In this document: in pieces, positions 6,050 through 41,843 of the stretch
Layout: each line of letters starts with the position of its first letter
Position numbering within the stretch: position 1 is the first letter of the stretch
Assembly (NCBI GenBank): GCA_902384455.1
Contig: CABMCB010000069.1
Coordinates: 1 to 41,843 of the forward strand
Source: an uncultured archaeon
GTDB taxonomy: Archaea; Altiarchaeota; Altiarchaeia; IMC4; SCGC-AAA252-I15
DNA length: 41,843 nucleotides
Reading direction: 5' to 3'
Notes under the pieces: model-generated
The model's input: only the letters and a program-made list of their open reading frames with translations
The model's database searches: none
Told to the model about the DNA's origin: nothing
Position numbers and translations under genes: made by a program

Positions 6050-6099
6050 TCGAGTGATATATACATAGTTGCCAGCAATGGCACAAGGAGGCAGGTAAC

Positions 6100-7894: not shown

Positions 7895-7921
7895 GGGTGC
7901 CCGAAAACGGGCACCCTTTTT
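7895..7921 (+). terminator. Hairpin plus T-tract terminator of the plus-strand cassette
   Basis: GGGTGCCCG-AAAA-CGGGCACCC-TTTTT between convergent genes. Confidence 0.8.
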
Positions 7922-19247: not shown

Positions 19248-19272
19248 AAACGTATCCCCAGTGATGACGTCA

Positions 19273-21391: not shown

Positions 21392-23269
21392 CTATAGGTT
21401 GTCTCGTCCCGCCCGGTTGTTCGCGTTGGCTCCGGGTAGGAACTCGGGGTGAGCCGCGGTCTTGCCTGCTCTGAGCGCGATGGCGTTCAGGAACCTGCAA
21501 TACCATTCCCGGCCCTTGGGTCCTGTCTGGATGGCGATGTGGTTCTTAAACTCGTCGACCACAGGGGCCAGGTCGAGCAGTTCCTTCGCTTCTTGGACAT
21601 CCTTCTCGGTCATGAGACCCGCCTTGACAGCGGCGGACACGAAGGCGTTGATTTGGTCAGCGGACCATGACGGGAAGGTGCCGAAGTCCTCGAGTATCTG
21701 CTTCAGGTCCGGGCGGGACATCTGCTTATCGAAGCCTTGCTCGGCCACATCGACTAATTTCTTTCGGTCTTCCGGTTTGGTAGCCAGTCCGAGATACAGA
21801 GTGCCTGCGACGGCTTCGGGAGCGGCGGAAGTGTCCCCGTCGGCCCATGCGACGATATAGGACGATACGGTCGTCATCTGTTCGAGGTATTGCTTAAGTT
21901 CGTCTGGAAGTTCTTTCATCGGTATCTCTCCTTGGTTAGCGACCTGCTGGGGTGCTACCGGGGCCTGCGCGGCGGGAGCGTTGCCAGGACAGGTGTCGGC
22001 GTGTGTTAGGAACTTCTCAATGGTCATCTGCTGGCCGCAACCGCATAGGACCAGGGTTCCCGGCGGTGGTGCCTTGGACTGCCGTGGAGGGGCCTGCGGG
22101 GCCGCTGGCGCGGGCGACGGCCTCGGGGCCGCCGGAGTGCCCATCGGCGACGGCGTGGCCGGAGAAGGCCGTGTGGGATAGAATCCTGGGCCTCCCGCTG
22201 GCGGGGCCTGCTGGGCGAGTCGCTGTGCGGCGTCCTGGGCCTGCTTCGCATCGAGGTCGGGTTTCTTGAGCGCCTTGGCAATCTCGGGAAGATACTCCTT
22301 CCCACGGTCCATTACCGTCTCAGCGATTTCCTTGGCGAACTTGAACTTCTTTTCGGACTGCTCGGCATCGAAGCGCTTCAGGGCAAGTTCTGGGGTGTCC
22401 GCGGACCCTCCGAGACCCGTGGCCTGGAAAGTGGCCTTGGCCTGGTTCATCGCTCCAAAGAGCGCGGTAATGGTCGCAAGAGCATTGGCAAGGTCGTTGC
22501 TCTGACCCTGGGATTTCTGGCCCCCGCCCTCGAGTTCGCGCTGGATGGCGTTGGCGGCCAGTTGCATCAACTTCTCGTCGCCGGTCTTCTTCGCCTGCTC
22601 GAAGAGATTGAGCGCTCGTTGAACGGGGTCGACAAGGAACTGACCGAGAGTGGCGCCCTGGGTCTGCGGTGCGCCTACGACGTTGGTCGGCCCGGTGGTG
22701 GTCCCAGCATCAATGGTGAAAGTGTTCACGAGGCGACCGTCGCCGTCTATGACCTGATATTCACCGGCACCCCACGCCAGAAATACTCTCGAAGGAACAT
22801 CATCGGAAGTTCGCGGCTTAAGTTCTGAACTCCAACCTTGAACCTCTTGCGGCAGAACGACCGTGTTCCCGTTGCGGTCGAATTGAGCAACCTTCTTTCG
22901 GAGACGATACGGTGGTCTGTCGCCAGAGTTGTGTTGAGCGGGACGACCCTCGCCGACACTTTCGGTCGGCGTCTGCTGTGGAGCGGTTGCCTGATTGTTC
23001 TCGATGGACCTTATTTTATCCTGCAAGGAGTCCATCTTCTCGCGCATGTCCTTAACGGCTTCAGACTTCGCGCGTTCTGTGTCGTAGTATTTTTGCTTCC
23101 AGAAGGCGGGGTCTTCGTCGGGTGAAGTGGGCGCGGGCGGGCGGCGCGGAGTCGGCTCTGGCTCTTCGTCGTCCTCGGCGTTCTCGTCGTCACGCTCGGC
23201 ATCGACGCCCTCGTCTTCATCGTCATCTTCCACTTCAACGTCCGGGTCCGGTCCCCGTTTCCTTGTCAT
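21392..23269 (-). CDS. Large hypothetical protein (625 aa): acidic N-terminus, coiled coil, Pro/Ala linker, small Zn-binding motif
   Basis: Long ORF; CGCG...H...C motif; GGAGAG RBS. Confidence 0.85.
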   Translation of the reverse strand: MTRKRGPDPDVEVEDDDEDEGVDAERDDENAEDDEEPEPTPRRPPAPTSPDEDPAFWKQKYYDTERAKSEAVKDMREKMDSLQDKIRSIENNQATAPQQTPTESVGEGRPAQHNSGDRPPYRLRKKVAQFDRNGNTVVLPQEVQGWSSELKPRTSDDVPSRVFLAWGAGEYQVIDGDGRLVNTFTIDAGTTTGPTNVVGAPQTQGATLGQFLVDPVQRALNLFEQAKKTGDEKLMQLAANAIQRELEGGGQKSQGQSNDLANALATITALFGAMNQAKATFQATGLGGSADTPELALKRFDAEQSEKKFKFAKEIAETVMDRGKEYLPEIAKALKKPDLDAKQAQDAAQRLAQQAPPAGGPGFYPTRPSPATPSPMGTPAAPRPSPAPAAPQAPPRQSKAPPPGTLVLCGCGQQMTIEKFLTHADTCPGNAPAAQAPVAPQQVANQGEIPMKELPDELKQYLEQMTTVSSYIVAWADGDTSAAPEAVAGTLYLGLATKPEDRKKLVDVAEQGFDKQMSRPDLKQILEDFGTFPSWSADQINAFVSAAVKAGLMTEKDVQEAKELLDLAPVVDEFKNHIAIQTGPKGREWYCRFLNAIALRAGKTAAHPEFLPGANANNRAGRDNL

Positions 23270-23561: not shown

Positions 23562-25307
23562 ATGACAGAGTGTGTTGTCTGCTCCAACCCGGCCACCAAC
23601 TATCTCATCAAGTCCGGTGACAGTCTTTGCGCGAGGTGCGTGAAGAACTTCAGGACCCTCGTGAGAATCAACGGGGGGCATGTTGATATGTCCCGGACCG
23701 GTCTGCTGGAAAGATTGAAGAAGATGGCGCACCCGGTGAAGTTTAGAACGGTTCGCCGGTGGAAGGCAAACCCGGTCGTGGTCGCTAATCCAGAAGATGT
23801 TCGTAAAACCCTAAAGAAAACAGGGCGTTCCGTTTTAGGAAGAATTTCCAAAGAACTTCGCGAGATAAGTCCAAACCGTCCGTGCGTCGTATGTGAAAAA
23901 TCGACAAATGTCTATTTTGAAGGAAAACCATACTGCTCGAAACACATGGAAGATATCCGAAAGAAAATTAGTAAACAACACGGTTTAAATCCAATAAAGG
24001 TCAACGGACGTGAAGAACCGAAAATGTACCTGGACGAGGGTCAGGCCAGAGAAATATACGAACAGATGAAGGCCGACGACCCGGACCGTATAGGGAACTT
24101 CGAGGAATGGAAACGGAGCGAGAAGGATATTTACACATTCGAGGTTCCTCCGAGTAATAATCCCACCGGTCCAAAATCTCGGTTTGACCATCACCGACAA
24201 ATACCGCCACAATGTTTTCAAACGATATCGTGGGCAACCGTACCCATCGAGCACACACCATACAAGGGAAAATATCGTGTCAAAGGTGCATTGGCGGTCA
24301 CGGGACGCCTCAAAAAGAAATGTGCAGATAGATGGGGCGAACGGGGCGTTCGTGTCTGGCGCAGGGCGTGGGCAATCCAGTCGATAATGACGCCGAAGAG
24401 CGCTGGAATGCGAACCACAAAGGGCGAGATGGCACTCGAGAACCCAGGGTTCAAACCGACGCTCATGGCCAAAACGATTATCAAAAAGTTCGGGACATCC
24501 TTCAGGGAAATGGAAGATTGGATGTCGAGTCACGGGATGAGCAACAAGTCGGTCGCGAAGGTCTTTAAAAACCCAAAGAAGGGCGCGAAGAAGACCTACA
24601 GAATGGAAGACTTCGATGTCATGGGTCCCGATGAGATAAACGACCCCAGGATAGCGTACATATTTATGTCGAAAGATGGACAGGTGTCGGGAAATCTCTT
24701 TTGGGAAGAAGGAAAACAACCGCATGTGAGGGGTCTTGTGGGGGAAACGGGAACCATAGAATATAAATATCCCATGAACGCTCCCGCCACGATTCCGAAG
24801 GACCCGGTATCTTATCTCGAAGATTTCGTCAAGCGTATAAATCGTGGCTTGTATGAGAACCCTTCGGCGAAGGACATCGAAAAGGAAGCAAAAGAACACC
24901 CGTGGCTCACGAAGTCTGAGGCGCGGCGCGTCGCAGAAGACCATGAGCGACTCGGTGTCAAAAATCCCGAGGAAAAGGATTTCACAAAACCGTTCTGGAC
25001 AAGAAAAGTGACTAAACTGAGCATCCGTACGGTGGGTTTTCAAGACTTATTGCGGGAGGACGGGCGTTTCCTCTATATCACTTTAGACGACGGTTCGGTA
25101 TACAATTTTATAGTTTCCGACCCGAATCTGACGGTGAAACAACTGGCGCAATACAAAGGACAACCGTATGGTGAAATATACAAATTCATAAATTCTTCTG
25201 AAAAGTTTCACACGAAGCACAACCCTCACGTGATACTTCACGAAACCGAGTTGCCGAACCCCGCAGACGACCCGACGGTTTATTATGGCGGCGGACCGGA
25301 GGGGTAA
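23562..25307 (+). CDS. Multidomain protein punctuated by 11 Asn-Pro motifs, with two N-terminal Zn-finger-like units
   Basis: CVVC..CxxC and CVVC..CxxH units; NP motifs separate compact segments; EH..A..A.DH segment resembles DUF5661. Confidence 0.85.
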   Translation: MTECVVCSNPATNYLIKSGDSLCARCVKNFRTLVRINGGHVDMSRTGLLERLKKMAHPVKFRTVRRWKANPVVVANPEDVRKTLKKTGRSVLGRISKELREISPNRPCVVCEKSTNVYFEGKPYCSKHMEDIRKKISKQHGLNPIKVNGREEPKMYLDEGQAREIYEQMKADDPDRIGNFEEWKRSEKDIYTFEVPPSNNPTGPKSRFDHHRQIPPQCFQTISWATVPIEHTPYKGKYRVKGALAVTGRLKKKCADRWGERGVRVWRRAWAIQSIMTPKSAGMRTTKGEMALENPGFKPTLMAKTIIKKFGTSFREMEDWMSSHGMSNKSVAKVFKNPKKGAKKTYRMEDFDVMGPDEINDPRIAYIFMSKDGQVSGNLFWEEGKQPHVRGLVGETGTIEYKYPMNAPATIPKDPVSYLEDFVKRINRGLYENPSAKDIEKEAKEHPWLTKSEARRVAEDHERLGVKNPEEKDFTKPFWTRKVTKLSIRTVGFQDLLREDGRFLYITLDDGSVYNFIVSDPNLTVKQLAQYKGQPYGEIYKFINSSEKFHTKHNPHVILHETELPNPADDPTVYYGGGPEG

Positions 25308-25308
25308 G

Positions 25309-28095
25309 ATGCCCAGACGGAATCCGAGTCTATACGGTGACGCTATAGAAAAGTTCTTGCGCGGGCACGGCGGGTCTGCTACCAACGAAGCGGTCTATAG
25401 GGCGGTGGCGAAAGAACTCAATAAATCAGACAACAACAATTTCCGCGCCACGGTTAGGAATGTCCTACAAAAAGACGGACGGTTCTTTTCGACGCAGAAG
25501 GGTATCTGGAAACTAAAAGACTATAAACCCAGCAAACCGGTGCCAGTGCCGTCGACGCCGACGGGCACATCGAAGATGCCTCTTGATAATATATTACGAG
25601 GAGATATAATTAAAATCGGACCCTACGCGGGAGACGCATATCGATTCGGAGCAGTTCACAGAATCGGTTCCTGGTATGGTGGTAAGAACGCCGATAAGTA
25701 CGCGTCGATAATATGGGCAATCTGGGAGAACAGTATGGATGACGCGAGTAACGCATACATATTATCTACCATTCAAGAACTGAAACCTACGAGAGAGGGC
25801 GGAAAGTTGACCAGCGAAGATTATAACAATTTTCAAGTGGTCAATAAGGTGGGATGGGTCACGCCTAAATATACGACACCCCCACCCGCAGAACCGAAAC
25901 CGGCAGAACCGGCCCCACCACCGACGCCCACACCGGCGGCCCCGCCAACGACTCCACCGCCGCCGACCCCGCCGCAGGGAAGAGATGTCGATATCTACGC
26001 TTCGTGTTATAAGGGTCGTCAGACACGAATCAGAGCGCCGTTACCAGACTATTTCGTGAGTCGAAACCAGACATATAATGAACACTGGTCCACAGACGAA
26101 GATGTTCATATTCTAAAAATTACAATATTCGACGAGACGCAACAGGTCTTTGCTCTTATTCAAAACAAGAACGACGAGATGTGGACCATAGGTATCGACT
26201 TGCTCGATTGTAGCAAGACGCCAGAGCCACCGGCGGAACCGCCCGCGGAGCCGCCGAAGCCGGTAGAACCGCCAAAGCCAGTAGAGCCAGACGAAGTCGT
26301 GGACTACGTCACAAAATCTACACAGCAGGACCCTAAAACAGCAGAAGAAATTGGCGCGATAATAAGCGGTCTGAACAAAAACCACGGCGGAGATATATTT
26401 GAATATATACGCAGACTGATGAACTCTGTCCGACACAGGTTCATGTTTCCACAGAAGACCGACTCGGACGTTTTCTTCTCTGCGTGGTTTATGCGCGACG
26501 GTTCATTGGTGCTCAAAGGTGCTCCCGGAACTGGTAAAACCGTTCTACTCACGCTCACGGCGCTGTCGTTGTCCGGTGCGGACTGGAAGACGGCGGGAAT
26601 CAAGAAACTAAAGCACTGTCTTGAATATCTCGGGGCTAACGACTATTACGGGGTCGCACAACACAACGCCGACAAGGAACCAGAAGACGTGTTCTTTTAC
26701 ACAAACATCGCCATAAACAAAAAGAGCGCACCCGACAAACTCGGCGCGGACGGAAAATTCTACGACGAGGTCGCCAAGTACGATTTCGCCCCGGAGACAC
26801 GTCCTATAGTGAACTGTTTCATCAAACTGCACAACGAGGCAAACAGGGTCGGAGCCAACGTTGCAGATGCGCTTCTCGGCCTACTCAGCGAAAAACGGGT
26901 CGAATATAAGGGAAAGTTCTTCGAAAGTCCCAGAACAACTAAACACCCAGATTGGGACGAGTTCGAAGTCGGTCATCTGAACTTCTTCGACTACAACCCA
27001 CACCTCGATGTAGAGGGTCATGAAATGGACCGGGCACTGCTCGACAGAATTAAAGTTGGGATATTCCTGAGTGGTGGAAACGTCGGTGTCCGATATAAAA
27101 TACTGAGGGGTCGCAGGGACGCGACGAAAGGCATTCCGACCGCCTACTTTGAGGATATACTGAACGGTAGAGTAGACCCGCTTGACCCGAACACGGTCAT
27201 GTCTATATGGGAGATTACAGACCGGGTGTTCATAGACGATGAAGCACTGCGTTGGATATCGTATTTTACAAACCTACCAAATTTCACTATACGAAAATAT
27301 AAATCGTCTTCATATTACAGGGTTACATTCAAGAAAGATGACCTCGGGCAATTGAAACAGGAACTCGAACCGTTTGACACTTACATAGACACGACCATGA
27401 TATCATACCGTCCTGCGAAAGATAACATGGACTCCGCCGCCGGAAAACTGAAATCGGGCGTGAATGTGCTCGATAAGTATTCGGCTATAGATTCTTTGAA
27501 CCGGCCTCTTGGTAGCAGGTCGGAAGAATCGTTGATGGACCTCGTCAAGGCGGTCGTGTTCTACAATTATTGCATGGCACCCCCGGAAGAGCGAAAGAAA
27601 ATGCGTCTCGAGTTCAGGGTCGACGACCCGTCGCTCCCAGACGGTGAACGGGCACAGAAGAGACTCGCCAAGATAGAACAAATCCTCGACTTACTCCCAT
27701 ATGTCCTCGACCACCGTGTCAATTTGGGTGTTGAAAAAGACATACAACAGAATTTCTTAAACTTCGGTCATTTCATATCGTTCTATTTCAAGCCGGTCAT
27801 CTTCAAGGACCCGGAGATGCAACCAATCTGGTTGAAGGCGATGCAAGTGATGGGCGAACTGACATATATAGACCAGAAAGACGATAAGAAAGTCGGCGCC
27901 TATCTGAAGAAATACAAAGATACCAAAACGAAGAGGCCGTCGGTTAGGATATCCGATGCTCGCAAGGTCGAGTTCATCGAGCGCATGGTCGAGAAAATGG
28001 GCAACACCAAAACCGCGGACGAGGTTCTGACCATGTTCAAGGGGGATATATTCCTTAACCAATTTTATCTCATGTCAGGAGCAACGGATGATTAG
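25309..28095 (+). CDS. MoxR-type AAA+ ATPase with N-terminal winged HTH, SH3-like domain and Pro-rich linkers
   Basis: GAPGTGKT; LHNEANR..ADALLGLLSE; NP....G.EMDRALLDR; GSRS; VLDHRV. Start 25309 after a GGAGGGG RBS. Confidence 0.88.
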   Translation: MPRRNPSLYGDAIEKFLRGHGGSATNEAVYRAVAKELNKSDNNNFRATVRNVLQKDGRFFSTQKGIWKLKDYKPSKPVPVPSTPTGTSKMPLDNILRGDIIKIGPYAGDAYRFGAVHRIGSWYGGKNADKYASIIWAIWENSMDDASNAYILSTIQELKPTREGGKLTSEDYNNFQVVNKVGWVTPKYTTPPPAEPKPAEPAPPPTPTPAAPPTTPPPPTPPQGRDVDIYASCYKGRQTRIRAPLPDYFVSRNQTYNEHWSTDEDVHILKITIFDETQQVFALIQNKNDEMWTIGIDLLDCSKTPEPPAEPPAEPPKPVEPPKPVEPDEVVDYVTKSTQQDPKTAEEIGAIISGLNKNHGGDIFEYIRRLMNSVRHRFMFPQKTDSDVFFSAWFMRDGSLVLKGAPGTGKTVLLTLTALSLSGADWKTAGIKKLKHCLEYLGANDYYGVAQHNADKEPEDVFFYTNIAINKKSAPDKLGADGKFYDEVAKYDFAPETRPIVNCFIKLHNEANRVGANVADALLGLLSEKRVEYKGKFFESPRTTKHPDWDEFEVGHLNFFDYNPHLDVEGHEMDRALLDRIKVGIFLSGGNVGVRYKILRGRRDATKGIPTAYFEDILNGRVDPLDPNTVMSIWEITDRVFIDDEALRWISYFTNLPNFTIRKYKSSSYYRVTFKKDDLGQLKQELEPFDTYIDTTMISYRPAKDNMDSAAGKLKSGVNVLDKYSAIDSLNRPLGSRSEESLMDLVKAVVFYNYCMAPPEERKKMRLEFRVDDPSLPDGERAQKRLAKIEQILDLLPYVLDHRVNLGVEKDIQQNFLNFGHFISFYFKPVIFKDPEMQPIWLKAMQVMGELTYIDQKDDKKVGAYLKKYKDTKTKRPSVRISDARKVEFIERMVEKMGNTKTADEVLTMFKGDIFLNQFYLMSGATDD

Positions 28096-28106
28096 GGGGT
28101 CTGACC

Positions 28107-28862
28107 GTGCCGATAACAGCAGAAGAGGCGCGGACGGCCTTTGGAAAAATCATGGCCGCGCATCCGGCTCCGATTAGGATGGTTCTGTTCAAGGACCAGC
28201 ATGAACATATAACAAGCACGGGAGAATCTGTGCCCGCGCCAGCGTACTACACCGCCGGTACGATATATGCGGTTCTGGACAATCTTACTACGGTCGACAT
28301 CATGACCTTCGTGCTCGCGCATGAAGTGGGACACCAATATTTCGACCCAGGAAATATAGTCGTCTCGTATATAGCGAGTTATTTGTATCTCAAAAAGAGC
28401 AACAAGTTGGACAATAGATTGGCATTTCGTCGGATGTCTGGAATACAGAACGGCTATTCCGACGCGGTGGTCAACTGCGTCACGATGTACGACACGGCGT
28501 ACGATAAACAGTTTGGTAAGGGCGCACTCGAGAAAGTCATGGTCGAGGCATATTCGTTGACGTCATCATATATAGACGGTGTAAAAATAGACCCGACAAA
28601 CGCCCTGCGTTTGAAATTCATCAACGCCTTCATGGCAATGTGGTATGTCAGAAACCATGAGCCGGAAGTATACCGAAGCGTCCGAGAAAAAGTCAACAAA
28701 GACCCAACGTTGGCGCGTATTGTAGAACTCGTGGAAAAACTGGCGGTAGAACGAGACCTTGCCGTTCGAGACGTCCAGGCGTATTACGACATCGCCGTTG
28801 AACTGTTCGAGAAGTTCGACCAGGTGGGCGTTATCGATTTTGGGGGGGTAGAAAAACTATGA
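28107..28862 (+). CDS. HExxH zinc metallopeptidase-like protein
   Basis: VLAHEVGH followed by N...DAVVN, the pattern of MoxR/vWA-associated peptidases. Confidence 0.78.
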   Translation: MPITAEEARTAFGKIMAAHPAPIRMVLFKDQHEHITSTGESVPAPAYYTAGTIYAVLDNLTTVDIMTFVLAHEVGHQYFDPGNIVVSYIASYLYLKKSNKLDNRLAFRRMSGIQNGYSDAVVNCVTMYDTAYDKQFGKGALEKVMVEAYSLTSSYIDGVKIDPTNALRLKFINAFMAMWYVRNHEPEVYRSVREKVNKDPTLARIVELVEKLAVERDLAVRDVQAYYDIAVELFEKFDQVGVIDFGGVEKL

Positions 28863-30496
28863 CTCTTCCGAATTTTGAAATATATCGTCCTGGTTCAAAA
28901 TGGAGCATCAGCGACCAAGAATGGGAGTGTATGATGCTTAAACTAATTACTATGTGGGACTCTTACGTTTACGAATATAATAGTTACATCGTATCAAAAG
29001 TTAAGGCGTCGGTTCTTAAAAATATGATTCCTCCGGTTCATTTGTCGAGAAGTAGTCCTGTAAAGACGGAGGGTCGTTGGGCACAAAAGGACGGTCTCGA
29101 CCCGGACGACAGGAGACCGAATTTTGTAAGGAGCCTGACGACATACGGCGACCTGTTTTTCGGGACGCCGATGGGCAAGCACAGAGAGTTCAGAGAAGGC
29201 AGGGGAAGAAAGTTCTCAAAGGCGGGGTCGTTCGTAATATTCTGGGACCTCGACCGAGATATGGACGGCGGGATGCACCCGAGATGTAAGATAAGCAAAC
29301 AATATTTTTACAATTCACTCGCGGCGGTTTACGCACTGACGGAAGAAGCAAAAGAACGCGGGGACCTGTTGACCTTTATAACCATGCCGGGAAGCATAGA
29401 CGGTATCGTACCCGCGCACGACACACCAGAAATGAGAAAGGCGCCGGTCATGCCGATGCTGTTATCGACACCGCCTCTTGACAGAGTCATGCAAATCAAG
29501 GTCAAAAAGGCGCTACAGAGACTACCGTTGAAACACGGACGTCGCGGACCGTCGTATAGAAAAGCCTTCAAGGATTTGAACAATGTGGGTCCGAATTTGG
29601 TGAAGACTTTCGACGAGAGTCGAGACATATTTGAATATGGTCCGAACTATTACGGAAGCGTAGACCCTATGGCGACCGACGGTCTAATCGAGGACGAATG
29701 GAAGGCCGATATACTTGCCAGACTGATAAATCCCATCAGCGAATCTGAAAGGTTTGGAAGGATTTCAAAATATTATTGGTGGATAAACACGGACAGATAC
29801 GATGAAATTCTCGACGAGATATTACACTTCAAATGGGAATATCACGATTCCGCGACATCATTCTGGGCGTGTGTGAGCACGTTGAGGAAACTCTTGCTCG
29901 AAATCAAGCCTGCGAGGCGAGGCGTGTTGATATTGGTTACGTCGCTGGCACATATGTGCTTTTTCTGGCCGGGATATCACTACTACGCTGACATTGCACG
30001 AGACTATGATATGTATATCGTCGATGTAGGCGATGTCAACTGGTCGCAGGTGTTTCGTAGAGAACCAACGTTACAGACCATGAACGGGCCGATGTTTAAT
30101 TATGTCCACGTCAACACTCTCGTGGACATAACGGTATCCCCCCAGGGGTTTAGAAAGTTCGAGAACCTTAGTATTATCGTGTCCAAGAAGTTTGACCCCA
30201 AATCGGAAGTAGAAGTTCATATCAACTTGAACGACGGAGCCAAAACCGCGTCGTATCACAGCGACAACTACCCGACGATAAGCGAACTCCAGGCCGCCGT
30301 ATCGAGAGACTTCCCCGAACTCGCCGTATCAAGGGACACGTCGCCCTCGTACAAAGTCTCGGACATGACTGCAGGCGACCACGTGATTACTTATCCCGAT
30401 GGAATTATATGCCTGTCCGGATATGACCTTGAGAACCTGACGTACAAAATGATGAAGATGATAGGAGGTCACATGAATGGCGTTACCGTCACCTGA
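28859..30496 (+). CDS. vWA-like protein with degenerate MIDAS
   Basis: PNFVRSL lead-in, FVIFWDLDRDM (for hhhhDxSxSM), VLILVTS; follows MoxR and the peptidase. Confidence 0.62.
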   Translation: MTLPNFEIYRPGSKWSISDQEWECMMLKLITMWDSYVYEYNSYIVSKVKASVLKNMIPPVHLSRSSPVKTEGRWAQKDGLDPDDRRPNFVRSLTTYGDLFFGTPMGKHREFREGRGRKFSKAGSFVIFWDLDRDMDGGMHPRCKISKQYFYNSLAAVYALTEEAKERGDLLTFITMPGSIDGIVPAHDTPEMRKAPVMPMLLSTPPLDRVMQIKVKKALQRLPLKHGRRGPSYRKAFKDLNNVGPNLVKTFDESRDIFEYGPNYYGSVDPMATDGLIEDEWKADILARLINPISESERFGRISKYYWWINTDRYDEILDEILHFKWEYHDSATSFWACVSTLRKLLLEIKPARRGVLILVTSLAHMCFFWPGYHYYADIARDYDMYIVDVGDVNWSQVFRREPTLQTMNGPMFNYVHVNTLVDITVSPQGFRKFENLSIIVSKKFDPKSEVEVHINLNDGAKTASYHSDNYPTISELQAAVSRDFPELAVSRDTSPSYKVSDMTAGDHVITYPDGIICLSGYDLENLTYKMMKMIGGHMNGVTVT

Positions 30497-32627
30497 TATG
30501 GATAGCAGGACACTCATATATTCGATAGGAAGTTGGTTCGAACGGGCGGCAATGCAGAACGGGTTTGAGGTGGAGTGGAATAGTTGGAAAGAGACGACAG
30601 CGGGCGGAGGGGATTACGGGGAAGTGAAATGGTTAATATACATGAGAATAAGGATTAGAGAGGGTGGTGTCGCAGGTGCCGGACAGAAATTCATGCGTAA
30701 GCATCAATTTAAATTACTTTCGGACTACGACGAACTGTTTTTCGTGTGTGTTCCTCCGGACCGTCTGAATCAGGAAGTCGTCGGAAATCCTACAGAACTG
30801 ATGACATACAATATCGAGGCGATGAACTCACACCATAGTATCATAATGTCACAAAAGACGGGTCTCACCATCCATCAATTTCCGGTTAACGACTTGAATT
30901 TGATATGCGTGATATTCGACCCGAACACACCCGCGGTCAAATCTATGGATGAATGGGTCACGCAACACCGTTCGGTTTTTCGGTGGGACCCGGCCCCTCC
31001 GAAAGAACCACAAAAACCAGAGGAACCTTCAAAGCCGGAAGAACCGAAGGAGCCGGAAGAGCCTAAAGAACCCGAAGAGCCTAAAGAACCGAAAGAACCT
31101 TCGGAGCCTGACGAATCGGAGGAACCCGAACCAGAAGAAGAGTCTGATGACGCCGAAGGAGAAGACGAAGGTGAAGGCGGAGAAGGCGAGGGCGAAGAGG
31201 GAGACCAGGACGAAGAAGATTCTGAAGAAGACGACGAGTCCGGAGAAGAAGAAAAAGAAGGCGACGGTGACAAAGAAGAAATAAAAGAGGAAGACGCCGA
31301 CAAAGAGGACGAGGCGGACTCGGACGGGGAAGAAGACGGAGCAGGAGACGAGGCGCCCGAACCAGACGAGGAAGGAGAAGACGAGGATGATGGTCGGTCC
31401 GAAGATGGGAAAGAGGACGACGAAGGTGACTCTGAACCGGACGACGACACCGAAGACGAGGAACCCGAGCCGGACAAAGGCGCACAAGATAAAGAAGAGG
31501 ACTCGGAGGACGGCGAAGGTGAGGACACCGACAAAGAACCCGAACCGGACGAAGACCGAGAAAGAGACTATACGGACACAGACGACGAAGAAGACGAAGA
31601 ACAGTCGGATGATGATAAACCAGACGACGAATCCGAACCATCGGAAGAAGAGATGCCCGACATCGAGTCTCAAGAATCGGAAGACGGCGAAGCGCCTTCG
31701 GAAGAACCCGAAGAAGAGGATGTTGAGCAATGGGACGAAGAGGACACCGGCGCTACAGGTACTCCGACGACCACACATCAAAAAGACACTAAACGCGGTC
31801 GCACGACTCCGACAGGAGACTTGACGTATAAAGACATCAAACCGGGAGACCTGGTGTTTGACGATTCGACTAAGAGATATGGTGTGGTCCAAGAAGTAGG
31901 ACCCGGAAAAGACGGACAGGGCGGAGAAACCTGGGTATGGGCCGCGTGGAGGACAAGCGCCGAAGAGGCCGTAGAAGCCAAAAAAGAAGCGCCGAGACCG
32001 CATTCGTCTCGAAGTGCCGTATATCAAATGGCGACGCCGGAGACCGATACCGATAACGAAAACCCTTCGGACGGAAAGGACGTCGATAAGGCCAAGACGG
32101 TCATCGAGAAGTTCACATGGATGCCCGCTAATACGGTCAGGACGGTCAAGATACCGGCGATATCGAAGGTCAATCCCAAGCACAAGAAGGTCGCCAACTG
32201 GAAGACCGCACTGTATCAGTCTGACAAAAAATTGGACAATCCACTCGGATTTACAAAGAATTATTATCACCCGTGGGAAGATGGAGTCCCGCGACAGGTC
32301 TACGAGGTCGACGGTCAATGGCTCGTAGCCTGCGGTCGTTGCATCGTCAAGCCAGAAGGAATCGACGACCTACCGAAGGACAAGCGCGGTATGGGACCCG
32401 TGACCTTCGCGGAAATGGCCGCCGTGCAGACGTGGGCAAGACTCGCATGGAATCTCGGCATGGACCGACCCTGCTCAAAGTGTGGTGGAACACTGCGGTT
32501 CATACCCGAAGTCGGATGGCGTTGCGACAAATGCGAAGGTCGGACATCGAGATACGTCCCGACACGCGGTATGCTCCTGTTCGATAAGGAGCGTAACATC
32601 ATCGTGGCCATCGCAAAGTTAAAATAG
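30477..32627 (+). CDS. Protein with a very long Asp/Glu-rich region, SH3-like domain and C-terminal Zn ribbon
   Basis: ~250-aa D/E-rich tract; CSKCGG...CDKC. Confidence 0.85.
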   Translation: MALPSPDMDSRTLIYSIGSWFERAAMQNGFEVEWNSWKETTAGGGDYGEVKWLIYMRIRIREGGVAGAGQKFMRKHQFKLLSDYDELFFVCVPPDRLNQEVVGNPTELMTYNIEAMNSHHSIIMSQKTGLTIHQFPVNDLNLICVIFDPNTPAVKSMDEWVTQHRSVFRWDPAPPKEPQKPEEPSKPEEPKEPEEPKEPEEPKEPKEPSEPDESEEPEPEEESDDAEGEDEGEGGEGEGEEGDQDEEDSEEDDESGEEEKEGDGDKEEIKEEDADKEDEADSDGEEDGAGDEAPEPDEEGEDEDDGRSEDGKEDDEGDSEPDDDTEDEEPEPDKGAQDKEEDSEDGEGEDTDKEPEPDEDRERDYTDTDDEEDEEQSDDDKPDDESEPSEEEMPDIESQESEDGEAPSEEPEEEDVEQWDEEDTGATGTPTTTHQKDTKRGRTTPTGDLTYKDIKPGDLVFDDSTKRYGVVQEVGPGKDGQGGETWVWAAWRTSAEEAVEAKKEAPRPHSSRSAVYQMATPETDTDNENPSDGKDVDKAKTVIEKFTWMPANTVRTVKIPAISKVNPKHKKVANWKTALYQSDKKLDNPLGFTKNYYHPWEDGVPRQVYEVDGQWLVACGRCIVKPEGIDDLPKDKRGMGPVTFAEMAAVQTWARLAWNLGMDRPCSKCGGTLRFIPEVGWRCDKCEGRTSRYVPTRGMLLFDKERNIIVAIAKLK
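31000..31135 (+). repeat. Coding repeat (EEPKEP-like units)
   Basis: KEPQKPEEPSKPEEPKEPEEPKEPEEPKEPKEPSEP. Confidence 0.8.
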
Positions 32628-32649
32628 GACCCCTGCACAATATACTATC

Positions 32650-33417
32650 ATGGCCGTTTCTGATGGACTGAAGGCCCTGGCGCTCCTGGCGGTAGGGACC
32701 GCTGTAGGTGTTGCTGTGCATTATGGTCTAACTCAAGGAATGGTCAGACATCCGACGATAGAAGCCGTTCCTAAAGGCGCGGTTATACACAAGAACTTCC
32801 CGCCCTGGGCGACGGGGCGACTCGCGGAAGAAATTTTGGGCGATGACATCAAGGCCGCTGTTTATCGCGGTAAGAACGACCCGGATGTGCGCTTGCTGGC
32901 CATCGATATAATCAGGAGTGCGCGGTTGGATGGTCGCCAATATGCGGATGTGGCCGCCGCTATACAGTCGTGGGTCAGGGATAATATTCTCTATGTGTCC
33001 GACCCGGTCAGGACCGAGATATTTCAAGAGGCCAGATACACTTTATTCGTCTCGAAGGCCGGAGATTGTGACGACCAGGCCATCGCCGTGGCCTCGTTGC
33101 TCATGGCAGTCGGGATACCCGCGAAGATAATCCTGCTCTCTATGGACCCGAACTTCAACACCAGGACATCGCGGTTCACTCACGTCTTCGCCGCCGCTGA
33201 AATAAGCGGTAAGGAGATATGGTGTGAGACCATAGTGCCTAATGCCGCTCTGGATTATCGTCACCAACATGGCGGACTCATGCGTATCGATATGTCCACA
33301 CCCGCGTTGCCTGCAAAGAAAGAAATAGAGGCGACTCCGGACGCTATGAATAATCCGTGCCTACCCGTTCCTGGTTTCCAGGGTCTCGCGGACCTTTGCG
33401 GCCTCGCGTGGGCTTAA
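32650..33417 (+). CDS. Transglutaminase-like cysteine enzyme with N-terminal membrane anchor
   Basis: WVRDNILYVSDP, GDCDD (catalytic Cys), HVFA, WCET; hydrophobic N-terminus. Confidence 0.88.
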   Translation: MAVSDGLKALALLAVGTAVGVAVHYGLTQGMVRHPTIEAVPKGAVIHKNFPPWATGRLAEEILGDDIKAAVYRGKNDPDVRLLAIDIIRSARLDGRQYADVAAAIQSWVRDNILYVSDPVRTEIFQEARYTLFVSKAGDCDDQAIAVASLLMAVGIPAKIILLSMDPNFNTRTSRFTHVFAAAEISGKEIWCETIVPNAALDYRHQHGGLMRIDMSTPALPAKKEIEATPDAMNNPCLPVPGFQGLADLCGLAWA

Positions 33418-34383
33418 TTTAAATTCGTCGTCTGTTGTGGACGTCGGGTCGCTATGCCTGTGCTCGGGCCAGACTCGAGGGTCACAGATGATTTTATATC
33501 CGGCCTTGATGATGTCGTAAGCGAAAAAAACATCGCAAGCGTTGTCCATGCCGGGAACGAATCTGAACGTGGTCTTATTGAGCGCCTTACCGTCGATTAA
33601 AATGCAACCGAGCGGACATCCAGCAACCTCGAAGGGAGCGCCCTTTTTCTGATAGAAGCGCATCTCACTCTGGTGATACGCCCGGTAGGTCACGGATGAG
33701 CCACCGGCCCGCCAGTGCGGGACCCGGACAGGTATCCATCCGGTCTTGCCGTCGAGAACCATCGGCATGAGTTGAAAATCGTCTTGGGGTTTCATCAGGT
33801 CGACCGATAATTCTTTCATTATCATCGTGTCTTGGTCCTTTGGTGTGCCCGCGTCGAGATAAAGGATGCCTTCACATTCAAGTTTATCGATGGCTTCTTT
33901 GGTAAGTTTTTTTGTGGTGTAGTCGGTCACGCCGGTCACGGCACCGACCGCTTTACCGAAGAGGCGTTTCCACCATTTGTTCTCGGACTCGTAAGTCTCG
34001 ACAAGTTTCTTGATGTAATCGGGCTTCTCGAGTATCACGTCGCTCTCGACGATGAGAAGCATGTCATGGTTCATGGCCTTCCAGTAGCCTCGGATATAAT
34101 TATAGATGGCCGTGAGACGAATAGTAGGACTGAACCGGTTATCGAAACCAAAGTGCGTCACGACAATGCCGGTCCCTTTCAGTCGGTCGGCAAGTTTGAC
34201 GTAATATTCGACGTCGAGCAGGTCGATTGTATTATCGGCAATAAGAAAGTCTACACTATATCCGTCTGGAATCTCCTGGTCGAGTATTCCATTTAGGAAA
34301 TCCTCCCAGCAATAATCTTTTAATTTATGCGTGGGCGTGGATACCAAGATGGACTTACTCTTCTTTCGACGGGAGGGCCACAT
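33361..34383 (-). CDS. GT-A fold (GT2-like) glycosyltransferase
   Basis: ILVSTPT, LLIVESDV, GCPLGCILI, DVFF....GYKIICDP...H; start placed at 34383. Confidence 0.8.
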   Translation of the reverse strand: MWPSRRKKSKSILVSTPTHKLKDYCWEDFLNGILDQEIPDGYSVDFLIADNTIDLLDVEYYVKLADRLKGTGIVVTHFGFDNRFSPTIRLTAIYNYIRGYWKAMNHDMLLIVESDVILEKPDYIKKLVETYESENKWWKRLFGKAVGAVTGVTDYTTKKLTKEAIDKLECEGILYLDAGTPKDQDTMIMKELSVDLMKPQDDFQLMPMVLDGKTGWIPVRVPHWRAGGSSVTYRAYHQSEMRFYQKKGAPFEVAGCPLGCILIDGKALNKTTFRFVPGMDNACDVFFAYDIIKAGYKIICDPRVWPEHRHSDPTSTTDDEFKLSPREAAKVRETLETRNG

Positions 34384-35020
34384 CTTTAGCACGACCTTCG
34401 GAGAACGAGACAACGGTCCCCATGCCCTTGACCACGGTGACGCTCTTGCTGACATTCCTGGTGGAGCCATTGTAGGACAGGCTTTCCCAGTCGAACGTCT
34501 TCTGGTTGCGCTCCACGTAATCGGACAGGTCTTTCAAGAAGCGCTCGACGTCAGCCACGACCTTGTTGAGAAACAGGTCGGCGGCTTCAGGGTTGTCGAA
34601 GTTCTGTAGAAAGACACTGGACAGGTAGTGAAGGCCGATGTCGTAGGTCATTTTGTCGGCGCTCGCGACAGGCGCGTCGGAGTTGATGGCGTTGCTGATG
34701 TCCGGGAGCGTGAAGTAATCCTCGGGCGTGGGTGTCCCGGCATACTCGTCGCCGTCACTGTCTCCGATAGGCTTGCCCTCGGAATCAGACCGGGTGGACT
34801 GGCGCTTGAACATGAACACCGGGTTGTAGGCGTTCGCAGGCATCGGAAGGTTGCTCTCGGAGATATCGACGAGCATGGCGAACAGTGGCTTCTCGAAGTT
34901 GGTCTTGCCTTTATATTTGTACTTAATCTTCTTCAAGACCTTTAATATAACGTAGAAATTGCCGTCACGCTTCGCTCGCTCCACGGTCTCTATCTTGAAA
35001 GTCTTAATCATCTTGCTCAT
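34355..35020 (-). CDS. Hypothetical protein (221 aa)
   Basis: Long ORF; start moved to MSKMIK. Confidence 0.75.
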   Translation of the reverse strand: MSKMIKTFKIETVERAKRDGNFYVILKVLKKIKYKYKGKTNFEKPLFAMLVDISESNLPMPANAYNPVFMFKRQSTRSDSEGKPIGDSDGDEYAGTPTPEDYFTLPDISNAINSDAPVASADKMTYDIGLHYLSSVFLQNFDNPEAADLFLNKVVADVERFLKDLSDYVERNQKTFDWESLSYNGSTRNVSKSVTVVKGMGTVVSFSEGRAKDVALPSKEE

Positions 35021-35072
35021 TTTTGAATCTCGCTCTTCCCCTCGGTTACCCATATGTTTTCCCCCTTATGGT

Positions 35073-35267
35073 TCAATCTTTCTTAACTATCAACGTACCC
35101 GGTCGTCCACGAGGTTTTTTAACACCGTGCGGTCGATATTTAATTCCTCCAAGTCGACACAAGAGTGCAGTCCACGATTCGACATCACCGGTGTCTGGGT
35201 CTGTCTTTCGCTGTTTATTAAGTTCTTTGACGGCGTATTCTGCTATCCGCAGAGTTGTGCTCGGCAT
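35073..35267 (-). CDS. Ribbon-helix-helix / antitoxin-like DNA-binding protein
   Basis: TTLRI...AVKEL...K....ESW..LL.RL pattern plus basic tail. Confidence 0.6.
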   Translation of the reverse strand: MPSTTLRIAEYAVKELNKQRKTDPDTGDVESWTALLCRLGGIKYRPHGVKKPRGRPGTLIVKKD

Positions 35268-35404
35268 GGATTCATCCCTGTGTCAGGATGTGAACTGATG
35301 GTCGCACCGTGTTCACCGGTAATATACAGATAGTGCACACCTACTATTTATAGATTTTCTAATAATTATGGTATCGCAATAAATCACGCTTGGTGGTGTC
35401 AAAC

Positions 35405-36208
35405 ATGCCAACATTCGACGAAAAATCTATTGTCAGTGCAGAACGCAACCCGAAGATACACAGGCCGGTCTTCCACGGAACGAGGAAGGCAAAGACCTGG
35501 GTGGCGAAGAGGGTCACCGGTGCCAGACGACTGGTCACCAACCCCAAGAAGGCCCTCCTGCCCCCGACGAAGGACCTTGAGCACTTGCCCAAGGCCAACG
35601 TCTACACCGTCGCGTCGACGATTTTTGGCGCGTTCGCAACCGGCGGAACCGGCGCGGGCTTCATGTTCCTCGCCGATGCGGTCGCTGGCCTCGCAAAGGC
35701 CAACACTCAGAGTCCCTTCTACGAGCCAGTCCGTGACGTCGTCCGGCTTGCTGGCGAAGGCATCCTGGGTCTCTCGATATATCCGTTCGCCGCGGCCAAG
35801 ATAACCGGCGACAAGGACATCGGGAAGGCCATGTGGCTCGGCGGCACCATCCTCACAGGCGTCGACCTGGGAGTGACGGTGTTCAAGTACGTCCTCAAGG
35901 GCGTCAACGCTGTCCGCAACAAGTCCATGCCAACCGAGGCACCGGCCCCGACCGCCGCGCAGGCGGGAATGGCCCTGGTCGGCCTCAGTGGACTCGCCGC
36001 ACTGGTCAAGGGCTATGGCACCGTCGCCACGCCCGAGAACAACCAGACGACACCCACCCCGGAGAACCTTGCCGGGATGGACGAACTCGCGCTCCTCGAA
36101 CAGGAGAAGAAGAAGTTCGAGGAACTGTCCGGCATCATGAAGGGTGTCGGCGGAAGCGGGACCCTCGTCGGCGGCGTCAACCAGCGCTCCGGGACCTTGA
36201 CCAGGTAA
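35405..36208 (+). CDS. Putative virion membrane protein (multi-TM) with basic NP-containing N-terminus
   Basis: About three Gly/Ala-rich hydrophobic segments; immediately upstream of the putative MCP. Confidence 0.8.
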   Translation: MPTFDEKSIVSAERNPKIHRPVFHGTRKAKTWVAKRVTGARRLVTNPKKALLPPTKDLEHLPKANVYTVASTIFGAFATGGTGAGFMFLADAVAGLAKANTQSPFYEPVRDVVRLAGEGILGLSIYPFAAAKITGDKDIGKAMWLGGTILTGVDLGVTVFKYVLKGVNAVRNKSMPTEAPAPTAAQAGMALVGLSGLAALVKGYGTVATPENNQTTPTPENLAGMDELALLEQEKKKFEELSGIMKGVGGSGTLVGGVNQRSGTLTR

Positions 36209-36314
36209 GACCTGGTCGGCATCACCAAGGCGTAATTCAGTAATCCCAGTCAACCGCCATACGGCGGATGATATGAACGGGTCAACATACCCGTCGAGTA
36301 GGAGGTCGAAAACT

Positions 36315-36935
36315 ATGTCTCCCCCAAACACGGTCAGGAACCAGTTGCAGGTCTATCGGGCGGCCAACGCTCAGATGGAGAATGCACTGGGCAACCAGGC
36401 ACTTGCCAAGAAGGCGGTCGTGGCTCAACAGATGTCCGACTCACTCTGGACTGACCCTGTAAGCCAGGAGGTTTATCTGAGGTACCCGATAACGTTGACG
36501 AAGAACACCAGCGGTGTGACCACCGCCATCAGCGTTGCGGGCCAGAAGGTAGCCATCTGGTACTACACGGTTACCCAGGGGGTCGAACTCCAGTTCCTCA
36601 TGGACGAGCCTCAGCACTACATCGGTGGCGCGGTCAAGGACAGCGTCTCATCCGATGTGGATGACTACGAGGCCGCTGTCGAGGTCTGGGACCAGTTCGA
36701 GCGCGACTTCAGGGGCACGGTGTGGGTCGGAACCACAACTGAGATAAACGATTCCGCCACCTACAGGCAGAACGGCCACCCCCTGTGCTACAACGGTGAC
36801 AAGGAGGTACGGGCCATAATGGGCGACAAGGTAATGCTCAAGATTACCACGCCGTCCGGTGGGTCCGTTATCAACACCGGCACCAGCACCTTCTCGCTGA
36901 GGGCATACCACCTCATCCTCAAGAGGTCCGGGTAA
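36315..36935 (+). CDS. Putative single-jelly-roll major capsid protein
   Basis: Strong AGGAGGT RBS; beta-strand pattern (IWYYTVxxG, GDKVMLKITTP.G..IN...STFSL) reminiscent of Halopanivirales-type SJR capsid proteins; flanked by hairpins and membrane proteins. CDS certain, function inferred. Confidence 0.6.
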   Translation: MSPPNTVRNQLQVYRAANAQMENALGNQALAKKAVVAQQMSDSLWTDPVSQEVYLRYPITLTKNTSGVTTAISVAGQKVAIWYYTVTQGVELQFLMDEPQHYIGGAVKDSVSSDVDDYEAAVEVWDQFERDFRGTVWVGTTTEINDSATYRQNGHPLCYNGDKEVRAIMGDKVMLKITTPSGGSVINTGTSTFSLRAYHLILKRSG

Positions 36936-37023
36936 GCCTTTAGTCAGGTGCACCAACCCCAGCGCAACCCCAACGGCAACAGAGCGTAGTGGTCTGCTAT
37001 GAAAGACCACACCTTGAACACCT

Positions 37024-37055
37024 CCGCCGGGTCCGTCGCAAGATGGACTCGGCGG
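37024..37055 (+). terminator. 14-bp GNRA-capped hairpin after the putative MCP gene
   Basis: CCGCCGGGTCCGTC-GCAA-GATGGACTCGGCGG with two G-U pairs. Confidence 0.6.
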
Positions 37056-37080
37056 TTGTACTTTACCCAGATGTGAAAGT

Positions 37081-37284
37081 ATGCCTCTCGTGAAGAACCC
37101 GGACCTAATGCAGTTGGGCGCTTTCAGTCTGGCCGACGTCGACCCGACGCCTCCCGCTCCACCGGCGACCACACAAGAGTCGAAACCGAAGATACCCCCG
37201 GAGCGAATAGGGTTCGTTCTCGGCTTCATAACGGGTGTCAGTGTAATAGGCATCCTATGGGCACGAGCATCACTATCCAAATAA
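37081..37284 (+). CDS. Small tail-anchored membrane protein
   Basis: MPLVKNP start, Pro-rich linker, C-terminal TM. Confidence 0.75.
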   Translation: MPLVKNPDLMQLGAFSLADVDPTPPAPPATTQESKPKIPPERIGFVLGFITGVSVIGILWARASLSK

Positions 37285-38395: not shown

Positions 38396-38405
38396 GAGGA
38401 CACAC

Positions 38406-41753: not shown

Positions 41754-41843
41754 GGTATTCCCCGTATGGGAAGTCACCAAAGCACGACCGTTCAATTTAA
41801 ATCCTGAACACGAGATAGAGGTGAAAGTTAAAAAACCGCTGGG

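Follow-up and report, generated by a model that had tools for sequence, protein, structure and literature searches.

Why should a single dipeptide, Asn-Pro (NP), recur through one gene of a virus-like element? The DNA analysed here, called the window, is a whole contig of 41,843 nucleotides (C69; CABMCB010000069.1) from an assembly assigned to an uncultured altiarchaeotal archaeon. Its open reading frame (ORF) 23562-25307 encodes a protein, P0001, that an initial annotation, made from the sequence alone, had singled out for the frequency with which Asn is followed by Pro. That annotation proposed that a viral protease cuts at NP to release several small effectors, or that NP tags cargo for the virion interior. 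The evidence set out below gives good support to one part of the answer, namely that NP, in this order, has been selected as a marker of module joints in the P0001 family. As to what the marker is for, we give roughly even chances to the reading, drawn from sequence, that the ORF is a bead-on-a-string polyprotein cut between Asn and Pro by a peptidase system that the element itself encodes.

How unusual is the dipeptide? The initial count of 11 NP among 27 Asn, against roughly 2 expected, was reproduced: P0001 has 11 where its composition predicts 1.86, at residues 9, 70, 76, 143, 200, 294, 337, 433, 468, 554 and 566, and the contexts first listed (SNP, ANP, ANP, LNP, NNP, ENP, KNP, ENP, KNP, HNP, PNP) are exact. 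No shuffle of the protein reached 11, neither among 5,000 nor, in a separate run, among 20,000. NP is its most over-represented dipeptide (z 6.7; the next, MS, has z 3.2), and among the 1,787 ORFs of at least 200 amino acids (aa) in the 2.41-Mb assembly this ORF ranks first in NP excess. Asn is followed by Pro in 41% of cases in P0001, compared with 6.8% outside the contig. Both codons at the NP sites vary (AAC or AAT, then CCG, CCA, CCC or CCT), which places the signal at the protein level and rules out a DNA word; a DNA-level motif was accordingly rejected.

The pattern is not confined to one protein. A word-indexed search with P0001 found two homologues, exhaustive searching with HMMER over 1.84 billion representatives gave 44 proteins at E ≤0.001, the query included, and a search with P0004 as query gave P0005 and P0006 alone. 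Fifteen homologues reach 250 aa or more, and in 11 of them NP is individually enriched (P0002-P0009, P0013, P0031 and P0040; at most 1 in 2,000 shuffles reaches the count), and the 15 together contain 111 NP against 20.9 expected. Enrichment of the dipeptide is thus conserved in most of the longer homologues; the 28 homologues below 250 aa are not enriched (15 against 9.0 expected). When the query, the 11 enriched homologues and the orthologue from locus L008 are pooled (n=13), NP occurs 124 times against 20.6 expected, a six-fold excess, compared with only 14 occurrences of PN and 22 of N-x-P, and Asp, Ser and Gln before Pro stay below expectation (DP 21 against 27.4, SP 19 against 29.7, QP 10 against 14.2). 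The effect is therefore order-specific and Asn-specific in this family, and the contrast between 124 NP and 14 PN rules out the Asn- and Pro-rich composition of linkers as its source. Could chance, a compositional artefact of such linkers or a scar of recombination at the DNA level still account for it? Linkers are generally Pro-rich, and NP is in mild excess genome-wide (observed/expected 1.35). With no shuffle in 20,000 reaching the count, PN depleted where NP is raised six-fold, codons that vary and a pattern kept among proteins only 25-50% identical, we regard this explanation as next to negligible.

The residues around the dipeptide are weakly preferred: Lys, Glu and Ala preceding Asn, with Glu the second commonest directly before it (19/124 sites), and Lys, Ala and Glu following Pro. 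None of three longer motifs explains NP at the 124 sites, namely the 2A motif NPGP (0/124; NPG 5/124), NPTH (0/124) and the Pro-Pro endopeptidase-like NP followed by a second Pro (10/124). These counts bear directly on 2A-like ribosomal skipping, by which one peptide bond would be left unmade and separate products would come from one ORF. The frequent Glu before Asn agrees with it, and an archaeal host might offer eukaryote-like translation factors. However, 2A sequences end in NPGP, the conserved upstream peptide is absent here, and 2A activity is to our knowledge not known in prokaryotes, so that skipping deserves very little credit.

Where in the protein do the dipeptides fall? An AlphaFold model of P0001 built from a 39-sequence alignment reached a mean predicted local distance difference test score (pLDDT) of 72.5; a single-sequence model (mean pLDDT 39.5) was discarded. 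The model has at least eight modules with low-confidence linkers between them, in the order two zinc-ribbon modules, an acidic helical module, modules A, B, D, C and F, and a short tail; modules A (pLDDT 85-97) and D (95-98) are confident. Segments with pLDDT <50 are residues 59-75, 91-100, 143-156, 188-198, 297-314, 330-341, 464-475, 493-498, 549-567 and 569-581. Nine of the 11 NP lie within 3 residues of such a segment, a zone for which 31.7% of all residues qualify (binomial 9e-4), and all 11 sit in modelled loops between secondary-structure elements. Set against the modelled domain boundaries, as the initial annotation had suggested, 10 of the 11 sites are outside folded domains. The exception, NP9, is shared at the aligned place by P0008, and P0004 and P0006 lack it; it is probably not a joint. 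Other joints are kept more widely: at NP294, ALEN or AMEN is followed by Pro in P0003-P0007 and P0013, and module C is flanked by NP on both sides in P0003 as well (residues 241-275). From one NP to the next the median distance in the pooled set is 49 aa (interquartile range 32-86). The ends of sequence similarity tell the same story as the model. Among the internal ends of BLASTP alignment blocks, 249 of 591 fall within 6 residues of an N|P joint, against 111 ± 24 when joints are placed at random (maximum 199 in 2,000), and 71 of 201 do so after clustering, against 38.5 ± 5.4. Foldseek comparison of the 39-sequence-alignment model with PDB and BFVD gave no match at E ≤1e-3, and modules D and A had no match at 0.9 or above in the ESM Atlas.

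A position in loops between modules would also suit a protein that is never cut, and the main rival takes this form: an Asx-Pro turn or cap would act as structural punctuation that insulates the folding of adjacent domains in one long multidomain chain. Asn-Pro favours turns, every one of the 11 sites lies in a loop, a helix begins at or within 3 residues of the Pro at NP76 and NP433, and the Pro belongs to the conserved start of module A, stand-alone proteins included. Against this, only Asn is enriched before Pro (5.1-fold) and the commoner capping residues are not (DP 0.77, SP 0.64, TP 1.4), a helix directly follows NP at only 2 of the 11 sites, and Met replaces Asn in the stand-alone proteins described below, which indicates that the fold does not need Asn. 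It would also leave unexplained the NP found past a non-conserved leader in 12 of 20 homologues of the neighbouring ATPase. General helix capping was rejected on the first two of these grounds; structural punctuation as a whole we judge unlikely, though to be taken seriously.

The modules behave as exchangeable units. P0001, P0002 and P0003 have NP-bounded blocks in common, arranged as A-B-D-C in the window, A-B-C-D-E in P0002 and Zn-A-B-C-E in P0003, and the joints keep NP; shuffling of domains at NP among homologues, which had been put forward as a check, is thus seen. Module D matches 13 stand-alone proteins of at most 125 aa, whose termini project onto P0001 at medians of 340 and 432 and lie within 6 residues of 338 and 433 in 9/13 N-termini and 12/13 C-termini. 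These proteins finish in ...RGEY, where the query reads RGLYEN|P. Module A likewise occurs as stand-alone proteins of 60-90 aa in metagenomic and IMG/VR contigs. In alignment A2 the Pro of joint NP200 shares a column with residue 2 (MP...) of P0025 and P0037, both stand-alone proteins, and with the Pro of an internal MP in P0021. The fetched loci supplied 28 ORFs in which module A stands alone; MP is at the module start in 16 of them (17 by pattern; the safer count leaves out L011, a truncated ORF with its MP elsewhere) and at residue 1 of the called ORF in 14, and the others have a shorter N-terminus, M[TS]xxKYKRHR. In the stand-alone module A proteins, then, Met occupies the place of the joint Asn. 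A start Met before Pro is removed as a rule, so that a cut between Asn and Pro would give the module the N-terminus of its free counterpart. In P0002 and P0003 the match of module E to phrog_3543 begins at profile position 9-10, 2-3 residues past the joint, and a DUF6908 match in P0013 projects 7-8 residues past an NP joint. The claim that NP falls between domain-sized, unrelated segments of a polyprotein-like gene is thus borne out by block ends, model and module matches alike. What the modules do is not told by their families: P0001 matches none in Pfam, PHROG or NCBIfam, its relatives have only zinc ribbons, KOW, DUF6908, a weak Rubrerythrin match and two or three PHROGs of unknown function, and none of the modules matches a family of known function in these three collections.

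The surroundings of the stand-alone genes offer a hint. Near module A, two of five annotated loci (L013 and L014) have giant genes of the DarB-like methylase-helicase-zeta-toxin kind, and at L010 module A adjoins a ParB-like gene and an endolysin; no such neighbours were found at L015 and L022. The surroundings at L010, L013 and L014 are the neighbourhood described for polyvalent and co-injected anti-restriction proteins in the portion of PMC5512222 considered here, and the modules may be small accessory or internal proteins delivered with the DNA. The giants themselves (L013 12177-17117 and L014 10938-16916) join a DarB-like methylase-helicase to a C-terminal Zeta-toxin-type kinase, lie 0.7-2 kb downstream of module A and are not rich in NP (4 where 2.8 are expected, and 8 where 4.5 are). 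At two IMG/VR loci the gene that follows stand-alone module A (L004 10586-13549, L005 10896-13838) encodes a protein of some 980 aa whose N-terminus is signal-like, which has a great many N-x-S/T sequons and whose C-terminal part contains membrane helices.

How might such a protein be processed? Under the polyprotein reading, about eight small, independently folding modules would be fused in frame, nearly every joint being marked Asn-Pro, and a cut between Asn and Pro would free modules that each start with Pro. The cutting agent would most likely be a peptidase of the element itself, and the first candidate machine is encoded just downstream, in the conserved block with genes for a MoxR-like AAA+ ATPase, an HExxH protein and a transglutaminase-like Cys enzyme anchored in the membrane. 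NP would probably also serve to trim a short N-terminal leader from the ATPase and separate the C-terminal domain of the acidic protein encoded in the block. That a bond is cut, which bond and by what, we infer; cleavage at Asn|Pro is favoured by the match with the termini of stand-alone proteins, by the NP past the leader of the ATPase and by the peptidase candidates encoded next door.

Two other uses of the dipeptide have to be set beside this one. In the first, the Asn side chain would attack its own carbonyl, as in asparagine-lyase chemistry, and release the modules slowly without any peptidase. Uncatalysed cleavage at Asn is slow, which counts against it, and the missing flank consensus would fit a chemistry that requires only the dipeptide. 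Such cleavage is documented for the asparagine peptide lyases of families N6 (FlhB/YscU, cut at Asn|Pro-Thr-His) and N7 (reovirus mu1, cut at Asn42) (Rawlings, Barrett and Bateman 2011; PMC3207474, as far as the portion considered here goes). Known lyases, however, need folded surroundings of the Asn, whereas the joints of P0001 lie in low-confidence linkers; NPTH is absent from all 124 sites, and no similarity to N6 or N7 was detected with Pfam or Foldseek. In the second, NP in flexible linkers would be a docking motif that binds the ATPase, the capsid interior or a packaging factor, so that uncut cargo is loaded. Repetition in linkers modelled as disordered and recurrence at the N-terminus of the ATPase family speak for it; two residues without a flank consensus seem too weak for specific binding, and neither the match to stand-alone termini nor the Met in place of Asn would be explained. 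Self-cleavage appears improbable to us, and docking equally so.

Does the signal extend beyond P0001? The initial annotation had pointed to NP in several late proteins of the element. The sites are there, at counts mostly expected by chance: 2 against 3.37 expected in the AAA protein, 2 against 0.65 in 35390-36208 (p 0.13), 1 against 0.15 in 37081-37284 (p 0.15), 4 against 1.43 in the acidic protein (p 0.049) and 1 against 0.47 in the transglutaminase-like protein (p 0.37). The proposed dipeptide count per ORF therefore upholds the excess in P0001 and mostly not that in the other proteins listed. Nor is NP enriched near N-termini, since 4 of 51 element ORFs (C62, C69 and C66) have it in their first 20 residues compared with 130 of 2,275 ORFs elsewhere in the genome (Fisher p 0.34). 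Taken together, these results do not support NP as a general tag on late proteins. Two sites in the late proteins are conserved all the same, one at the N-terminus of the ATPase and the other in the acidic protein.

In the three ATPase orthologues (window, L003 and L008) NP stands at residues 13, 7 and 14, after leaders that cannot be aligned. With 19 further homologues added, and P0053 left out because its N-terminus is truncated, the set came to 20 proteins; it does not include P0064-P0075. In 12 of the 20, NP falls among the first 15 residues (0.9 expected), and it is the top dipeptide there (12; the next has 6); the binomial figure of 6e-12 overstates independence, as the proteins are related. 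The N-terminal NP persists down to 25-30% identity, and over their whole length the homologues are not clearly NP-rich (1-7 NP per protein against 1.5-5.2 expected). Two of them, P0046 and P0059, carry an intein with a LAGLIDADG endonuclease inside the ATPase core (Pfam). In the acidic protein, NP occurs at an aligned column in 3/3 orthologues (529 in the window, 790 in L003, 455 in L008) after sequence that cannot be aligned, and near the N-terminus in 2/3. This protein also has a stretch of about 270 aa in which nearly every residue is Asp, Glu, Pro, Lys or Gly, for which its L003 orthologue (16405-19326) has a Gly/Asp-rich stretch at the equivalent place and L008 has neither; a domain in its middle is similar to a portion of the AAA protein's N-terminal region. 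In the transglutaminase-like protein the C-terminal NP is found in 1/3 orthologues and is not conserved, and no orthologues of 35390 and 37081 were found in the fetched relatives. The PrimPol-D5 primase of the element (17016-19247, minus strand) has 6 NP against 1.38 expected (p 0.002), mostly within Pfam domains and not at their borders, and was treated as unrelated to the joint pattern. A code shared across the element, in which a MoxR-like unfoldase together with the transglutaminase-like or the HExxH peptidase would free at least eight Pro-starting proteins from a polyprotein whose modules are rapidly reshuffled and would trim the leader of its own ATPase, is a tentative proposal that falls somewhat short of an even chance.

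The genes around P0001 form a conserved block (Table 1). In the window, L003 and L008, and partly in L007, the NP gene, with positional orthologues in all three relatives, is flanked by a divergent 625-aa gene and by genes for the AAA_5 ATPase, the HExxH protein, a 545-aa protein, the acidic protein and the transglutaminase-like protein. The presence of both a transglutaminase-like Cys enzyme and an HExxH protein in the operon, claimed at the outset, holds in all three contexts. The ATPase matches Pfam AAA_5 at 1.4e-4, just over the cut-off, and its gene is linked to the transglutaminase-like gene in 3/3 contexts. In that enzyme the GDCDD motif, a downstream His and WxETI are intact in 3/3 orthologues. 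The HExxH protein has no Pfam, PHROG, NCBIfam or PDB sequence match, the best being aminopeptidase N around the HExxH at E ~1, and sequence and profile searches of PDB with the AAA and 545-aa proteins gave nothing significant. Equal sizes of the parent contigs (11,875 and 14,167) indicate that the NP proteins P0006 and P0004 probably neighbour the AAA homologues P0045 and P0048. A frameshift joining the NP gene to the ATPase gene was considered and rejected, since the offsets differ among the three contexts (+1 in the window, +2 in L003, and +1 in L008, where the genes do not overlap).

Table 1. Coordinates of the NP-jointed gene, its joints and modules, and neighbouring genes in the window
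Feature	Position	Strand	Description
SprT-like zinc metallopeptidase, further candidate	16484..16885	-	Pfam SprT-like 4.7e-7
625-aa conserved divergent neighbour	21392..23269	-	Orthologues directly upstream of the NP gene in L003, L007 and L008
NP-jointed modular protein P0001	23562..25307	+	581 aa, 27 Asn, 40 Pro; basis: ORF call, NP count, homologues, AlphaFold model
NP9	23586..23591	+	Within N-terminal zinc ribbon (CVVCSNP), pLDDT ~85, 49 residues from nearest low-confidence segment
Double joint NP70 + NP76 (KANPVVVANPED)	23769..23792	+	First zinc-ribbon module/second module; in or at edge of low-pLDDT 59-75; helix from P77
Joint NP143	23988..23993	+	First residue of low-pLDDT segment 143-156
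Joint NP200	24159..24164	+	Directly before module A; NP invariant there in 10/10 multi-module sequences (alignment A2)
Module A, aa 201-294	24162..24443	+	Basic (+13), beta-rich, most conserved module of the family
Joint NP294 (ALENP)	24441..24446	+	After module A; 2 residues from low-pLDDT 297-314
Joint NP337	24570..24575	+	Modules B/D; within low-pLDDT 330-341
Module D, aa 338-433	24573..24860	+	Alpha/beta domain, equal to a whole stand-alone protein family
Joint NP433	24858..24863	+	Modules D/C, both confident; loop between helices 416-428 and 436-445
Joint NP468	24963..24968	+	Module C (35-aa helical hairpin)/module F; within low-pLDDT 464-475
NP554 + NP566	25221..25262	+	C-terminal tail, within low-pLDDT 549-567
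MoxR-like (AAA_5) ATPase	25285..28095	+	936 aa; NP at residues 13-14 (window 25321-25326) after non-conserved leader
HExxH protein, candidate zinc peptidase	28107..28862	+	Invariant H72, E73, H76, Q77, D80, P81, G82 in 3 orthologues
545-aa conserved protein	28859..30496	+	Orthologues in L003 and L008 at 38-39% identity; no family match
Acidic protein	30477..32627	+	NP529 (window 32061-32066) precedes conserved C-terminal domain
Transglutaminase-like Cys enzyme, candidate peptidase	32650..33417	+	Pfam Transglut_core 7e-10; N-terminal hydrophobic helix, membrane-anchored

Several observations weigh against cleavage at NP by such a system. NP9 lies within a folded zinc ribbon, a place where no cut is expected; the ATPase core has an invariant NP (FFDYNPHLD) that is folded and presumably uncut; and NP680 and NP692 of P0013 fall within a phrog_6353 match. 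Four of the 15 long homologues (P0016, P0024, P0034 and P0044) have the same modules without NP excess, so that NP is not required for fusion. A recognition site of two residues with weakly preferred flanks is very small, and because the homologues are related, the binomial and shuffle figures given for them overstate independence. With regard to the candidate machine, the transglutaminase-like gene switches strand between relatives, and the three genomic contexts (window, L003 and L008) sample its co-occurrence with any one peptidase only weakly. Finally, no vWA domain was matched in the 545-aa or the acidic protein in Pfam, NCBIfam and PDB sequence searches, and with no demonstrable vWA in the 545-aa protein the likeness to known MoxR-vWA-transglutaminase operons is incomplete.

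What kind of element carries this gene? The two ends of the window (1-127 and 41717-41843) overlap contigs C62 (7.7 kb) and C66 (8.2 kb) by 127 bases, which makes the element at least 57.5 kb long; no terminal repeat was found in it and no cellular genes were seen. It encodes an MT-A70 methylase, a radical-SAM protein, two helicases, the PrimPol-D5 primase and the SprT-like metallopeptidase, and C62 (L044) adds a HerA/DUF87 ATPase and a Prok-JAB peptidase, which like the SprT-like protein is a further candidate for the cutting enzyme; the only NCBIfam match among the element proteins was a sub-threshold, desampylase-like one in the JAB protein. The early region includes, on the minus strand, the MT-A70 methylase (359-1018), DUF3850/ASCH (1899-2447), DUF6744 (4840-5673), radical-SAM (7920-8714) and SprT-like (16484-16885) genes. 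An intergenic segment (5915-6067) with a 58-nucleotide imperfect inverted repeat and two CCTATATATAGG-type words 123 nucleotides apart is a possible origin or divergent promoter region. Three consecutive proteins (37292-38395, 38367-39053 and 39059-39637) have at their C-terminal ends a hydrophobic helix and then KK or KKK; in the last two the helix comes after Thr/Pro-rich stalks. All three look like tail-anchored envelope or membrane proteins. On C66 (L045) lies an ORF, starting with MTNWLHWTENP, that continues past the contig end and is longer than 2,472 aa. IMG/VR, scanned with the NP protein and with the alignments of the 545-aa and AAA proteins, yielded no relatives of these; only stand-alone module A was found in it.

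The label of archaeal virus is not secure. The window is binned in an archaeal metagenome-assembled genome (MAG), which scores 976.6 bits with an archaeal rpoB model whose cut-off was otherwise passed only by four archaeal controls, against 203.6 bits with the bacterial model; the gene is split, and lies on contig C18. The only small-subunit ribosomal RNA of the assembly (contig C6 of 2.9 kb, L002 790-2424) scores as bacterial (1,242 against 853 bits) with a group II intron adjacent, and C6 is probably a contaminant of the archaeal bin. The closest relative, L003, is in a Zixibacteria MAG with a bacterial rpoB (1,855.7 bits), and the 545-aa gene was found in 1/61 genomes of the archaeal phylum and in 1/285 of the Zixibacteria phylum, with no further copies in either. 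One distant AAA homologue comes from a Thorarchaeota MAG. The window contig is the tetranucleotide outlier among the 36 contigs of at least 20 kb in the assembly, and no spacer-like matches were seen between it and the rest of the assembly.

Why would the dipeptide matter? Should NP prove to be where the chain is cut, the mature proteins of a whole group of uncultured virus-like elements could be predicted from a rule of two residues. Standard viral catalogues miss this group, and no relatives of its core genes were found in IMG/VR. A cut at NP would also imply a peptidase specific after Asn and before Pro, which is rare and would be useful in biotechnology, and would show cassette-like exchange of small accessory proteins inside one gene. 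Were the code indeed to span the element, polyprotein maturation of this kind would for the first time be known from a prokaryotic DNA virus-like element, with a cleavage specificity undescribed for any viral protease, and new modules could be added by insertion between two NP joints. If the protein stays uncut, a strictly conserved dipeptide at the joints of shuffled domains would still be an unusual rule of protein architecture.

How does P0001 compare with known systems? At the level of titles and abstract openings, we found no published description of such an NP joint motif. Punctuation of one ORF by NP-containing sequences is familiar from the 2A 'StopGo' peptides, D(V/I)ExNPGP, and the P0001 family has neither NPGP nor the upstream peptide. 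Among large DNA viruses, African swine fever virus pp220 and pp62 are cut at Gly-Gly-X, and T4 gp21 and phiKZ gp175 cut after Glu. There, as would be the case here, several proteins come from precursors cut at a motif of two or three residues, and P0001 shares with viral polyproteins a short conserved motif at module boundaries, kept in 11/15 of its long homologues; the differences lie in the motif itself, the prokaryotic element, the lack of a detected homologous protease and the shuffling of modules between close relatives.

The asparagine lyases share more of the chemistry proposed. In the portion of PMC3207474 considered here, FlhB and YscU have the same scissile bond as the one proposed for P0001, and cutting at Asn matures viral capsid proteins. 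Those enzymes have one site in a dedicated fold, whereas P0001 has many in flexible linkers, and no homology to N6 or N7 was found for it by Pfam, by Foldseek at E ≤1e-3 or by the presence of NPTH.

For the candidate machine, the nearest parallel is the prokaryotic MoxR-vWA-transglutaminase-like operons, for which a role as ATP-dependent, membrane-proximal peptidase systems has been predicted (Zhang and Aravind 2012; PMC3495828). The ATPase is proposed there to do the unfolding of substrates and the transglutaminase-like domain the cutting, a published function that is itself predicted. These YebA-like operons, as the part of the source considered here presents them, likewise place a MoxR-type AAA+ ATPase and a membrane-linked transglutaminase-like Cys enzyme in one block. 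The block of the window differs in belonging to a virus-like element, in adjoining its candidate substrate, in its extra HExxH protein and undetected vWA, and in a transglutaminase-like protein with one predicted N-terminal helix instead of eight.

For P0001 itself, the closest comparison is with the polyvalent proteins of mobile elements (Iyer, Burroughs, Anand, de Souza and Aravind 2017; PMC5512222). According to the part of that source used here, both bring several unrelated domains (2-15 in polyvalent proteins) into one polypeptide of a mobile element, both have domains that recur alone and recombined, as modules A and D do, and for polyvalent proteins too processing by associated peptidases has been proposed. 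The hallmark polyvalent domains (the methylase-helicase dyad, MPTase and ParB-like) and the Pfam LPD families were not found in the window protein or in nine multi-module relatives. The modules of P0001 are also very small, to judge from the spacing of NP, and their joints bear a fixed dipeptide of which there is no sign in the portion of PMC5512222 considered, a paper whose supplementary domain lists may hold these very modules.

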